64,000 nucleotides of DNA from Nitrosopumilus sp. (lineage in GTDB: Archaea; Thermoproteota; Nitrososphaeria; Nitrososphaerales; Nitrosopumilaceae). The stretch spans positions 1,440,001 through 1,504,000 of the forward strand of contig OZ245003.1 in assembly GCA_965223425.1 (NCBI GenBank), written 5' to 3'. Positions 59,121 through 64,000 of this stretch are shown here, piece after piece (within the stretch, counting starts at the first letter, position 1; each line of letters starts with the position of its first letter). The position numbers and the translations under genes are program-made. The notes under the pieces are model-generated. The model made no database searches. It was not told the DNA's origin and saw only the letters and a program-made list of their open reading frames with translations.

Positions 59121-60494
59121 TCAATATTCCACCTCACTTCTTGCAAGTAGGTTATAGGTTAGATCGACATATCCTTGTGGATCAACTTCTTTTGCAAATC
59201 CCTTATCGATGTTTATGAGATAAATGGAATGTAGATGGGCATTTAGAATGTCCTCATACCGGATTGGCGGATTTTTATAGTAACGATCGCAAAGATTCTT
59301 GATTTTATCTACATCTTCTTTCTTCCTTGCATTTGGGGGCAACAAGAAAATTTTTGGTATTGGCAAGATTCCAGTAACAGGACTGGCTAATGAAAACTTT
59401 GAACAGTGCTTGCTATATCTTGAAACTTTACTCATTATTCTGGCAGCATAATAATCAACTGTGTCCATTGCATTCTCAGGAGGAGTAAACCCAGTCTCTA
59501 TTTCAACAATGGTATTCCCATCACCTTTTTTTGCAAAGATATCACATACTAAAATATCTGAAAGCGTCTGCTAAACGGGCCGCAGGCAAGACAGCTTGCA
59601 GCAGACCTGGATGCGGGGCCGGAGTCATGCGGCTTTGAGAGCAGCTTGTGGGATTCCAACCTCGTAAGGCTGCACATCAAGAGAAAGTTCGGCGTGCAGT
59701 ACAGCAAGACAGGTGTGCTGCAGCTGATCAAGGAGGTGGGCTTTTCGTGGAGCAAGGCGCGTCCAAAAAACCCAAAATCCACCTCAAAAAAAGAGCAAAA
59801 AGAGTTTCAGGGACGGGCAAAAAAACCCGTTGCAGAAAAGTCGGCGCAGGGATACGCCGTACCGGCCGGCGATGCATCCTCGATTCAAAGGGCATCAAAC
59901 AGGCCCGGCTACGGGTGGAGAAGGCGCGGCAAGCGCGCCACATCTCCCCCTCTGTTTTGCCACGCAAGAGAAGATACATTTAGAGTCCTGTCAGCAAGCG
60001 CATTTTACTTTATGTTTTATGAAAAGCCAGACAGCGACGGCTTTTGCAGCTTTTTGGAACGGGTTCACAAAAGATTCGGCAAGGTGCTGCTGTCTGTAGA
60101 CAATGCGTCATATCACAAATCCAAAAAGGCAAGGGAGTTTCTGGAAAGATACAATGACGGGATAGTTCTGGAGTACCTGCTGCCGTACACGCCGGAGCTT
60201 AATCCCATTGAGATGCAGTGGAGGGTAATAAAACGGGTACTGTCTGCAAAAGTGTTTGGCACGCTAGATGAGATGGAGCAGTCAGTACGCACGCTGTTTG
60301 CCAGAAAGGAGATCCTGCCTGTGAAAATGTTCAATTATTTAATGTGCTAACTATGTTGTCCTTCTGATCCTAGGCGGACTGACTTTTCGTACAATTGAGA
60401 CATAATTTAGTTTGGGCACATCATTTTCTTTGAGATTTTTGGACAGTTTCTCAGTCATCTCATAGACGTCGTTACGGAATTTTTCCAAATCCAT
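59121..60494 (-). pseudogene. host gene split by IS630 element C
   Basis: 5' part MDLEKFRNDVYEM (from 60494); 3' part DIFAKKGDGNTIVEIETG..MDTVDYY (59121-59548). Confidence 0.6.
59561..60353 (+). mobile_element. 5'-truncated IS630 element C
   Basis: GDASS, VDNASYHKS, YTPELNPIE; right end ...GTGCTAACTA. Confidence 0.88.
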
Positions 60495-60510
60495 GATTCA
60501 AAACTATGTA

Positions 60511-61881
60511 ATCTTATGTGCCCCGATCAAGGAAATCAGATGATAAGAGTGGTTCTGGTTCAGAAAACAGAGCCGGTACTGCAAGGATCAGAAATGCAAA
60601 CAAACACACAACCCCAGATCCGAGGATATGCATGTCAGCTGTCTTTGTCGGCCTGGATGTCCACAAGAAGACCATCCAGATGTCAGTCATGGATGAAAAC
60701 GGCGAGGAACTGCTCAACAAAGAGATAGCAAACACAGCCGAAGACATCAGGTACAACATAGGCTGTTTGCACAAGGACTCGAAGCTTGTGATGGAATCCT
60801 CGTCTGTCTGGAAGGCGCCGTTCTTTCAGATAAGAGACGAGCTAAGCATGGACGTGTCGCTGTCAAACCCGTACACCACCAAGCTCATAGCAGAGTCCAA
60901 AAAGAAGACTGACAAGGTGGATGCCAGAATTCTGGCAGACATGCACAGGGGAGGATACATAGTATCGTGCCACGTACCCACGTTGCAGAACATGAACAAC
61001 AGGGACCTGGTGAATTACCGGCACAACCTGGTACGCCACAGGACAGGACTGAAGAACTCCATACACGGCATACTGCTGCAGAGATCGATTCGGCCTGACG
61101 GCAAGCCGTTTTGCGGGCCATGGATTGCGCAGGTTCGAAAGATAAGCGACTATAGGATAGACTCGTACCTGGACACGATAAACAGCATAAACGACAAGAT
61201 ACTCCAGTCAGATGCAAGGGTGCGCCAGGCAGCAAAGGAGAACGAGGATGCAACTCTGCTGCAGACCGTTCCGGGTGTCGGGGCATACTCTGCACTGGTC
61301 ATTGCATGTACAATAGACGGCATAGGAAGGTTCGTCAACTCGCACAAGCTGTGCTCTTATGTCGGCGTTGTTCCGTCTGTGAGATCCTCCGGCGAGTCCG
61401 TGCACTATGGACACATAACGCACCATGGAAGCAGCATATGCAGGTGGGTTCTGACAGAGTGCGTCTTGTCGCATGTAAGGTATGCGCCAGAGTCTGACAT
61501 TTCGATATTCTACAAGAGGCTTGCAAAGAGGAGGGGCAAGGGACGTGCATCAGTGGCTGCTGCCTCAAAGCTGCTGCGAGTCATTTACCGCATGCTCAAG
61601 GAGAGAAGGGCGTTTGTTACAAATTACAGTCAGGATGCCAATTGCGATGAACTCGTTGAGGGACAGACCTAGTAGTCTGTATGCCTCGCCTTGTAATTGC
61701 ATTATACCCTGATAAAAGAATGGAGAATGATACTGAGGGATTGCCTCTGTGATTGCCTCGGATGGATAACTGTTCGCCTCTTTGTTGTCTTGGGCCTTTG
61801 CGGTCTGGAAATAATCCTAGCTTGTGCCGTACCTGTCAGGATGAAAAATGTTGGGAATTCTTATAAGGATGGCACATGGAT
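60511..61881 (+). mobile_element. IS110-family (IS1111-like) element, copy 1; recombinase ORF 60518-61672 (likely start MSAVF at 60632)
   Basis: GLDVHK, VMESS, KKTDKVDA (DEDD), TVPGVG, SSGES, HITHHG; subterminal IR ATGTGCC/GGCACAT; AT at both junctions. Confidence 0.93.
61630..61800 (+). ncRNA. predicted bridge/seekRNA of IS110 copy 1 (mirror copy about 62040-62210 on -)
   Basis: Two stem/internal-loop/hairpin modules carrying matches to target (TGAACTCGT, TTGTAAT) and donor (ATGGAT). Confidence 0.65.
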
Positions 61882-61957
61882 ACGAGTTCACGTCCCCTTA
61901 CAAATAGGCGCGAATTTTACGGAATTTGTGTTGTTTACGCAGAGTAGGTGAACTCAT

Positions 61958-63328
61958 ATCCATGTGCCATCCTTATAAGAATTCCCAACATTTTTCATCC
62001 TGACAGGTACGGCACAAGCTAGGATTATTTCCAGACCGCAAAGGCCCAAGACAACAAAGAGGCGAACAGTTATCCATCCGAGGCAATCACAGAGGCAATC
62101 CCTCAGTATCATTCTCCATTCTTTTATCAGGGTATAATGCAATTACAAGGCGAGGCATACAGACTACTAGGTCTGTCCCTCAACGAGTTCATCGCAATTG
62201 GCATCCTGACTGTAATTTGTAACAAACGCCCTTCTCTCCTTGAGCATGCGGTAAATGACTCGCAGCAGCTTTGAGGCAGCAGCCACTGATGCACGTCCCT
62301 TGCCCCTCCTCTTTGCAAGCCTCTTGTAGAATATCGAAATGTCAGACTCTGGCGCATACCTTACATGCGACAAGACGCACTCTGTCAGAACCCACCTGCA
62401 TATGCTGCTTCCATGGTGCGTTATGTGTCCATAGTGCACGGACTCGCCGGAGGATCTCACAGACGGAACAACGCCGACATAAGAGCACAGCTTGTGCGAG
62501 TTGACGAACCTTCCTATGCCGTCTATTGTACATGCAATGACCAGTGCAGAGTATGCCCCGACACCCGGAACGGTCTGCAGCAGAGTTGCATCCTCGTTCT
62601 CCTTTGCTGCCTGGCGCACCCTTGCATCTGACTGGAGTATCTTGTCGTTTATGCTGTTTATCGTGTCCAGGTACGAGTCTATCCTATAGTCGCTTATCTT
62701 TCGAACCTGCGCAATCCATGGCCCGCAAAACGGCTTGCCGTCAGGCCGAATCGATCTCTGCAGCAGTATGCCGTGTATGGAGTTCTTCAGTCCTGTCCTG
62801 TGGCGTACCAGGTTGTGCCGGTAATTCACCAGGTCCCTGTTGTTCATGTTCTGCAACGTGGGTACGTGGCACGATACTATGTATCCTCCCCTGTGCATGT
62901 CTGCCAGAATTCTGGCATCCACCTTGTCAGTCTTCTTTTTGGACTCTGCTATGAGCTTGGTGGTGTACGGGTTTGACAGCGACACGTCCATGCTTAGCTC
63001 GTCTCTTATCTGAAAGAACGGCGCCTTCCAGACAGACGAGGATTCCATCACAAGCTTCGAGTCCTTGTGCAAACAGCCTATGTTGTACCTGATGTCTTCG
63101 GCTGTGTTTGCTATCTCTTTGTTGAGCAGTTCCTCGCCGTTTTCATCCATGACTGACATCTGGATGGTCTTCTTGTGGACATCCAGGCCGACAAAGACAG
63201 CTGACATGCATATCCTCGGATCTGGGGTTGTGTGTTTGTTTGCATTTCTGATCCTTGCAGTACCGGCTCTGTTTTCTGAACCAGAACCACTCTTATCATC
63301 TGATTTCCTTGATCGGGGCACATAAGAT
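61958..63328 (-). mobile_element. IS110-family element, copy 2 (identical protein, inverted); ORF 62167-63321
   Basis: Reverse complement of copy 1, same 1371-bp length. Confidence 0.93.
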
Positions 63329-63484
63329 TACAAAACTATCTAGTTTTTCGGGGTTTAAGAGTTAGTTGTGATTCAACATGTTTCGTCTCAAGGCACAAAT
63401 CGAGTAAATTACTCAAATAAAATTGAAAAATGAGTAATTTTTCTTCATACTTTGTCTTAACAACAAAAATCAGAATGATTGTCC

Positions 63485-64000
63485 GTGTTCAAAAACAAGG
63501 CTATAACGATAGGATTATTCTCATTTTTAATGCTCCTTTCGTTTATTCCATCTATAGATGCAAAGCTATGGGAGCTAGTAGTCGATGTAAATGTAGAAAA
63601 AGGAGTAATCCATTCAGGCGAAACAGTAGTAATTTCCGGAAAAGTTGTAGATCATGCGTACAAGCCAATGGGTGAGGTCGAGGTATTCATCAGAACAGGT
63701 GCAGATACAACAAAGATATTCACAAACCCAGAAGGCGAGTTTAGAGGTGAATTCAAAAATCTGGAAAGAGTACCGGCAACGTATACAGTTAACGTAGTTG
63801 CATCATGGAACGGAATGACCGGTTTATCAAGCACACAGTTTCAGGTGAAAGGCGATGCAACGCCAGTTTCAGTATTGCAGAAAAAACTAGCTACGGATGA
63901 AGCAAAAAAATATCTAAGCGCTAATGAAAGTGACTTTGAGAAGAATCCAATCGGGCAAACTTTGTTCAAATACTATCATGGTTTATTACAAGAATTAATT
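63485..64000 (+). CDS. secreted hypothetical protein (partial)
   Basis: GTG start MFKNKAITIGLFSFLMLLSFIPSIDA, open to window end. Confidence 0.7.
   Translation, partial: MFKNKAITIGLFSFLMLLSFIPSIDAKLWELVVDVNVEKGVIHSGETVVISGKVVDHAYKPMGEVEVFIRTGADTTKIFTNPEGEFRGEFKNLERVPATYTVNVVASWNGMTGLSSTQFQVKGDATPVSVLQKKLATDEAKKYLSANESDFEKNPIGQTLFKYYHGLLQELI

Follow-up and report, generated by a model that had tools for sequence, protein, structure and literature searches.

In a 64-kb stretch of the genome of Nitrosopumilus sp. (assembly GCA_965223425.1, contig OZ245003.1, positions 1,440,001 to 1,504,000; hereafter, the window), two copies of an IS110-family insertion sequence (IS) of the IS1111 type very probably occupy the two terminal inverted repeats (TIRs) of a single 80-bp miniature inverted-repeat transposable element (MITE), with their target most likely set by RNA. 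The MITE, which would derive from an ISBst12-like element of the IS66 family with a single open reading frame (ORF), would have landed and made the 8-bp duplication AAAACTAT, and the IS would have entered by site-specific recombination at the TA of TIR bases 2-3 (G-TA-YGAGTTCAC), once in each TIR. As insertion has a fixed orientation and the two TIRs are inverted, the copies converge, with left ends on the outside, and the outcome would be a 2.8-kb near-perfect palindrome around a 74-bp MITE interior. Target choice would most likely be made by an RNA encoded just downstream of the transposase gene, tnp, whose first loop would offer a 9-nt guide to TIR bases 3-11 and a short second guide for the TIR tip, (T)GTA, and whose second loop would match the element's own ends. 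This RNA would be made and bound by the transposase, the second IS copy would derive from the first, and insertion, which splits the TIR tip from the rest, would block mobilisation of the MITE.

The palindrome, its IS110-family copies and the MITE

The inverted repeat has arms of 1392 nt each (60507-61898 and 61941-63332) with 42 nt between them, and the composite of MITE and two IS copies spans positions 60508-63331, starting with GTAAT and finishing with ATTAC. The left and right IS copies are identical at all 1375 aligned positions, and the sole difference between the arms is a C/T within the MITE TIR (1 mismatch in 1385). With one TA core included in the count, each of the two insertions lengthens the DNA by 1372 bp. 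Rfam microRNA models scored 30.3 and 25 bits at the palindrome centre, far below their gathering scores, and were rejected.

Both copies carry an intact 346-amino-acid transposase ORF, the product of which matches PF01548 (DEDD_Tnp_IS110, 83.9 bits), PF02371 (Transposase_20, 65.8 bits) and the NCBIfam model NF033542, "IS110 family RNA-guided transposase" (215.9 bits, cut-off 140). The ORF is preceded by 121 nt ahead of its ATG (a short left end) and followed by 210 nt past its stop codon (a long right end). Subterminal inverted repeats of 7 bp lie 5 nt inside the left end (ATGTGCC) and 3 nt inside the right end (GGCACAT), at the bottom of the 7-17 bp range that a passage of one report gives for the IS1111 group (PMC11208160). 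Insertion took place at a short core common to donor and target, a 2-nt TA overlap only, without any target duplication by the IS. By this layout, the window elements are classed as IS110 family, IS1111 type. Their host is an archaeon, since its small-subunit rRNA scores higher on the archaeal model (1460.5 bits) than on the bacterial one (1090.1 bits).

The MITE is 80 bp long with a 12-bp TIR, GTAYGAGTTCAC. An empty copy (C1:2012427-2012506, C1 being the contig naming used for coordinates in the study genome, G000) reads GTACGAGTTCAC...GTGAACTCATAC and is flanked on both sides by AATTTATT. In silico removal of 1372 bp from each end of the window block restores this empty MITE at 80 of 80 bases. 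The excision is exact for cuts that follow G, GT or GTA, and other registers leave 2-4 mismatches; this 2-nt ambiguity therefore identifies the overlap between element and target as TA, and the target as G-TA-YGAGTTCAC. A search with the 77 bp between the IS copies found the MITE core at five genomic places (identity at least 98.7%), one empty, three with a single IS and one, in the window, with two. The singly occupied MITEs all have the IS in the same arm and have their own perfect 8-bp duplications (TCATCTAA, CCTACAAA and CTTGATAT). Perfect 8-bp repeats flank all five MITE copies as well as a sister 80-bp MITE (C1:633474-633553), which has TIRs GTATGACTTCAC and duplication ATTCACAC and is unoccupied.

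An autonomous parent was found from pairs of TIR-like sites about 1.5 kb apart. This 1526-bp element (C1:1529633-1531158) has TIRs GTATGAATTCAC / GTATGAGTTCAC and duplication CAATCATC, and its right TIR is the 12-bp TIR of the MITE. A single sense-strand ORF of 476 amino acids fills bases 77-1507, with no space for other genes. The protein scores 97.6 bits against PF03050 (DDE_Tnp_IS66; cut-off 23.1) and 154.2 bits against the NCBIfam IS66 model NF033517, which is below that model's cut-off of 180. Autonomous single-ORF IS66-family elements of the study genome have ends reading GTAYGA(G/A)TTCAC and 8-bp duplications. IS66 TIRs are reported to begin GTAA (ISfinder); the parent-type ends here read GTA(C/T)GA, with GTA present and GTAA absent. 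For ISDge4, of the ISBst12 group, ends of GTGACT/GTAACT are given, and the passage on that group describes a single transposase ORF with no tnpA or tnpB (PMC12898284). With a single ORF, 8-bp duplications and GT-type ends, the parent fits this group. The 80-bp unit is short and non-coding, occurs in several copies and shares its TIRs and the length of its duplication with an autonomous element of the study genome; on these features it is a MITE.

Much of the structure had been proposed in an earlier reading made from the letters of the window by themselves (the sequence-only reading). Its two inverted IS110 copies are indeed inverted and identical, at 1372 bp each instead of 1371; the 76-bp spacer with inverted edges (ACGAGTTCAC / GTGAACTCAT) and the exact 8-bp direct repeat AAAACTAT outside both copies are present as described. 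The IS66-like MITE that it postulated is borne out by the empty copy with its own duplication and by the single-ORF elements with the same ends, both of which it had named as things to look for. Its dimensions need correction: exact excision gives a residual element of 80 rather than 86 bp, TIRs of 12 rather than 15 bp and a TA rather than an AT core, and the ends are GTA(C/T)G, not GTAA. The same reading also proposed that the IS would disable the host elements while their spread supplies it with targets, and that the pair might mobilise or invert the DNA in between.

Two further loci in the study genome contain all or part of an IS66-family transposase gene. One is an 11.2-kb stretch (C1:2185618-2196856; L044 619-11857) with inverted GTATGAGGTCAC ends and the same 8-mer, AAAGTAAA, on either side, which contains an IS66-family transposase, two DDE_Tnp_1 transposases, a 2107-amino-acid PKD/Ig-like surface protein and, at its far end, a 91-bp MITE; it may be a large transposon bounded by IS66 ends. 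At the other (C1:325987-326622), about 105 nt of IS110 left end, following GTA, is joined to the 3' part of an IS66-family transposase gene and TIRs (GTGAAGTCATAC), which resembles the decayed product of an IS110 insertion into one end of a complete IS66-type element.

Target sites and a predicted guide RNA

A BLAST search with one arm found seven copies or pieces of the IS at 99% identity or more, namely the two in the window, c1158, c2373, c1201, c1806 and c332. Only the window pair has an intact transposase; c1201 is split by an insertion of about 1.1 kb, c1806 is split too, and c332 is truncated at base 914. A 1-bp deletion and two substitutions are common to c1158 and c1201. When diverged fragments are included, 17 of the 18 left ends listed begin GTAAT, and the flanks that precede them are unrelated. 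On the right, five of the six junctions that can be read in the 99% copies fall at one and the same position of the MITE TIR and the sixth, that of c2373, lies in a look-alike site, so that the unrelated flanks which would have spoken against the sequence-only reading were not what we saw. In all insertions, the left end of the IS faces the TIR tip. The c2373 junction, GTA followed by CGTGTTCAG, matches the predicted guide at 8 of 9 positions and has no TIR, from which it follows that the sequence is recognised rather than the TIR context. That this target might be another IS66-type end was considered and rejected, as the site is made up of chromosomal flank and the 3 opening bases of an unrelated IS of 1.25 kb. 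The copy of that IS which adjoins c2373 belongs to a multi-copy family of about 1.25 kb (C1:2375021-2376268 and at least 8 other places; TIR CAGCTAAGCGAA), with copies 93-95% identical. Genome-wide, 23 sites read TA-YGAGTTCA. Five are occupied, every one of them a MITE arm, and the unoccupied sites comprise five MITE arms, three exact-match IS66-type ends and ten unrelated sites. Occupancy is thus 5/10 for MITE arms versus 0/3 for exact-match IS66-type TIR ends.

The predicted guide lies close to the 3' end of tnp. Guide 1, TGAACTCGT, sits just upstream of the stop codon and is complementary, at every position, to A-CGAGTTCA, which makes up bases 3-11 of the MITE TIR. Guide 2, TGTAAT, matches only the T-G-TA of the target, and this tip-only match fits a target at the extreme tip of a mobile element, where the outer flank is arbitrary. 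The second loop of the scaffold matches the element's own ends. Guide 1 falls inside the ORF because the ancestral stop codon has been lost: most relatives read ACAGTTAG and the window element reads ACAGTCAG, a change of TAG to CAG, and the ORF runs 15 codons into the RNA region. Exact matching in the 3' region downstream of the stop codon found no guide, because the guide sits in the read-through end of the ORF; it was seen after the copies were aligned.

Relatives were collected from the same taxonomic family (E ≤ 1e-40), in which 17 of 151 genomes had a match. Of the 23 loci examined, five had no recognisable right end (L019, L026, L029, L031 and L036) and two were near-duplicates (L020 and L042); the 16 that were kept, together with two study-genome elements, made a set of 18 related elements. 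In this set, an exact complement of the core plus right flank of at least 8 nt was found in the element's own 3' region in 7/18 cases, versus 4/304 in cross comparisons, and all eight own matches of at least 7 nt fall at one common scaffold position. On the left, same-sense matches anchored at TA reached at least 6 nt in 5/14 own versus 3/180 cross comparisons, and the own matches sit immediately 3' of the first hairpin. The guides at the fixed scaffold position vary among relatives and match each relative's own flanks; in one (L016, from genome G018), guide and flank agree only after a shift of 1 nt and with one mismatch. Of the 16 extracted segments, 13 were folded to a consensus (L017, L025 and a sister element were left out), which has 25 pairs, 12 of them with compensatory changes, and comprises two internal loops, each with an outer stem and an inner hairpin. 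These predicted loops resemble the target- and donor-binding loops of bridge RNAs.

The sister element, a second IS110-family element of the study genome (50% amino acid identity), has the target TCAAT-TA-YGCATAAAGTCT, of which an empty site is present. Its guide, TTTATGCGT, is the complement of its own right flank and occupies the same position, between conserved GCG and TTGAGG. Copies lie at C1:323375-324352 (-), 2046356-2047333 (+) and 2067597-2068574 (-), with the empty site near C1:325945-325970, and guides TTTATGCGT and CAATTAAC fit both flanks. Additionally, a variant of the window IS with 90% identity (C1:2105157-2105911) has the guide TGAAGTCAT, an exact complement of the sister MITE's TIR, GTATGACTTCAC; it departs from the main guide by two changes, each complementary to that TIR. 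This match is only a hint that the variant's guide may be aimed at the sister TIR.

The closest relative, with 73% amino acid identity, is from a different genus (G054) and occupies the corresponding TIR position in an IS66-family element of full length (GTA followed by CTTGTTCAC). Its left flank ends GTA and its right flank reads CTTGTTCACGTGG; downstream are a 456-amino-acid IS66-family transposase (PF03050, 116.5 bits), the TIR GGTGAACAAGTAC and, beyond it, AAAGAGTC. These 8 bases also stand ahead of GTA, which gives the composite an 8-bp duplication. Both this insertion and the TIR-complementary guide lend support to the earlier proposal of an archaeal IS110 element programmed against IS66-type ends. 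In a third genus, an element of about 105 bp with TIRs GTACGCGGTCAC / GTACGAGGTCAC lies downstream of another IS110 relative (L031, G120 C2:1471470-1475447), so IS66-type MITEs occur beside this IS110 family there too. A DNA search of the relatives matched 4 of 41 genomes, including the window's own; the others were at 67-85% identity, at which an orthologous empty site could not be sought.

The features of the locus are collected in the table. Directly upstream of the palindrome is an IS630-type transposase remnant (59646-60350, +; DDE_3 71.7 bits, HTH_33 42.5 bits) with an element end at about 60355 and an internal motif, GAACGGGTTCAC, that occurs about 30 times in the genome. Loose contig ends at 60355/60356 in all four public sequencing runs mark a multi-copy boundary. 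A small ORF (60356-60494, -) has its start 14 bp away from the MITE, at 60494, and is interrupted at about 60355 by the IS630-type element, so that the MITE adjoins the upstream side of the start of a gene that is itself disrupted.

Table. Features of the doubly occupied MITE, in window coordinates.
Feature	Position	Strand	Remark
Left 8-bp target-site duplication AAAACTAT, from MITE insertion	60500-60507	.	Identical to 63332-63339
MITE TIR outer tip GTA, severed from rest of TIR by left IS	60508-60510	+	
Left IS110-family (IS1111-type) element, 1372 bp with one TA core; short 5' end, long 3' non-coding end	60511-61882	+	
tnp, 346-amino-acid DEDD transposase/recombinase; alternative in-frame GTG start at 60518	60632-61672	+	
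Predicted bridge/seekRNA-like scaffold: two internal loops, each with outer stem and inner hairpin	61626-61780	+	Consensus fold
Predicted guide 1 TGAACTCGT, 5' side of first loop	61648-61656	+	Exact complement of A-CGAGTTCA
Predicted guide 2 TGTAAT, 3' side of first loop	61692-61697	+	Same sense as left junction T-G-TA-AT; only TIR tip matched
MITE interior, 74 of 80 bp, non-palindromic	61883-61956	+	Identical to empty copy
Right IS110-family element, inverted, identical to left copy	61957-63328	-	
Right-copy tnp	62167-63207	-	
Right-copy predicted RNA region	62059-62213	-	
Other MITE TIR outer tip TAC	63329-63331	+	
Right 8-bp duplication AAAACTAT	63332-63339	.	

Other explanations and points that weigh against RNA guidance

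Several observations sit uneasily with a double insertion directed by RNA. The guide RNA is a prediction only, and a search of positions 60300-63500 with Rfam in E-value mode gave no true match and no bridge-RNA family. The elements compared in the own-versus-cross tests are relatives and hence non-independent, so the ratios overstate independence. The G054 guide agrees with its TIR at only 7 of 9 positions, and the 90% variant is not in the sister TIR, its flank being TA-CTCTTCAG. Furthermore, arm use is uneven: arms reading TA-TGAGTTCAC-CTACTC, which require a G:T wobble with the guide, are occupied in 4/5 cases, the perfectly matched arms (followed by GTCCCC) in just 1/5, and the IS66-type ends with the same 11 bases in 0/3. 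A 9-nt guide does not explain this unevenness. It could be accounted for if the transposase protein itself reads the TIR and the RNA complementarity is incidental; nevertheless, the guides at a fixed position vary between relatives and fit each one's flanks, the scaffold has compensatory pairs, and the RNA sections of two reports describe experimental demonstration of RNA guidance (bridge RNA or seekRNA) for the IS110 and IS1111 groups (PMC11187229, PMC11208160), which together make recognition by protein improbable. A different account of the locus dispenses with the MITE, taking the 76-bp hairpin as part of an IS110 element of about 1.45 kb and the palindrome as a self-insertion, and it gains something from the presence of the same 77 bp after the IS right end in all three single copies. 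However, the 80-bp unit is also found by itself, flanked by an 8-bp duplication of its own, and shares its 12-bp TIR exactly with IS66-family elements of the study genome, and the IS copy c2373 lacks the unit. IS110-family insertion is not known to make an 8-bp duplication either, and this account is barely credible.

Long palindromes are a familiar assembler failure, and the real locus could be a MITE with one IS that the assembler mirrored. Contigs of four out of six public runs were examined for such a fold-back. No contig in the four runs spans the MITE core with both IS right ends, which neither confirms nor refutes the interior, and no empty AAAACTAT site was seen, as none of the contig joints listed for these runs bypasses the composite in full. 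On the other side, unitigs join both unique flanks to IS left ends: one from X1 (record 1, 60369-60534) joins the unique left flank, and X1 record 8 and X3 record 16 (from 63303) join the inverted left end to the unique right flank. A single-IS locus would show a bare MITE TAC tip on one side. As 31-mer graphs would lead one to expect, these flank unitigs enter the repeat by just 27-29 nt; X3 contains the empty MITE as well, and X1 is possibly the source sample of the assembly, hence not independent support against a fold-back. Moreover, at the centre of the palindrome lies the MITE interior, which is asymmetric, non-palindromic and identical to that of the empty copy, and the 8-mers on the flanks are direct rather than inverted repeats. 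We regard a fold-back artefact as unlikely and give it very little weight. The three singly occupied MITEs raise a separate question, which is compatible with two insertions in the window: they may have spread as composites moved by IS66 transposase instead of arising by separate IS110 insertions. The lesions shared by c1158 and c1201, which have different 8-bp duplications, point that way, as does the common arm; yet the outer end of such a composite, GTAATCTTATGTGCC, resembles an IS66 TIR only in GTA, and a defective IS110 could be moved in trans by the intact window copies. Composite spread is an outside chance that deserves some weight. For the window itself, two insertions of an IS1111-type element into the TIRs of one MITE remain the favoured reading.

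Relation to known systems and significance

The closest parallel is with IS4321 and IS5075, reportedly IS1111-type elements that enter the TIRs of Tn21-family transposons at a single position and orientation. By these accounts, they share with the window elements IS110-family membership, subterminal repeats and a fixed position and orientation in the TIR of another transposon, and one host element can receive an insertion in each of its TIRs, the two being inverted. In the window, by contrast, the host is an IS66-family (ISBst12-like) IS and its 80-bp MITE rather than a Tn3-family transposon, insertion is at TIR bases 2-3 with an arbitrary flank on the left side of the target, and the case is archaeal, with a doubly occupied MITE. 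An IS1111-attC group was reportedly described by Post and Hall in 2009. ISPpu9 is an IS110 element that targets REP (repetitive extragenic palindromic) sequences, according to the passage on it in PMC12288879. Both resemble the window elements in their use of repetitive host sequences, often mobile or palindromic ones, as safe places to land, although the target here is a DDE transposon end and not an integron recombination site or a REP element.

With the bridge RNA of IS621 and the seekRNAs of ISEc11, ISKpn4 and ISPa11, as outlined in the relevant parts of the two reports, the window elements share a DEDD recombinase and a (predicted) RNA with short matches to both target strands (PMC11208160, PMC11187229). 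In the IS1111 group, the same passages place the guide RNA downstream of tnp, and the RNA predicted here from sequence is likewise downstream of tnp, in an element with a long right end and subterminal repeats (PMC11187229, PMC11208160). Unlike in those systems, the left-side guide is reduced to the TIR tip, there is no match to an Rfam family, and, with the ancestral stop codon lost, the 3' end of the ORF extends into the predicted RNA. A literature search on IS110, IS66, MITEs and archaea listed no title or abstract opening on IS110 insertion into IS66 ends; archaeal members, or members that target IS66, may be catalogued in the supplements of the seekRNA and bridge-RNA papers.

The habit itself, IS1111-group elements targeting transposon TIRs, is already known, and no new mechanism is proposed. 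What the window adds is an extension of the IS4321/IS5075-type habit to archaea and IS66-family hosts, and a conserved (predicted) 127-nt guide-RNA scaffold documented in one archaeal family. In this locus, nature would provide a clean example of an RNA-guided recombinase directed against the end of a different transposon family, and the occurrence of empty, single and double states in one genome offers a test bed for how guides are set, whether they follow the host element through time and whether insertion shuts that element down. More tentatively, and with somewhat more doubt than confidence, an archaeal IS1111-type clade may live specifically on ISBst12-type IS66 elements and their MITEs, its guide being re-tuned as host TIRs diverge. 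Three cases speak for this reading: GTACGAGTTCAC in the window, GTATGACTTCAC for the variant guide elsewhere in the study genome and, from another genus, GTACTTGTTCAC. With the cut at the TIR tip, such a clade would need to read only bases inside the TIR. If true, the clade would be a natural RNA-guided parasite, or brake, of another transposon family.

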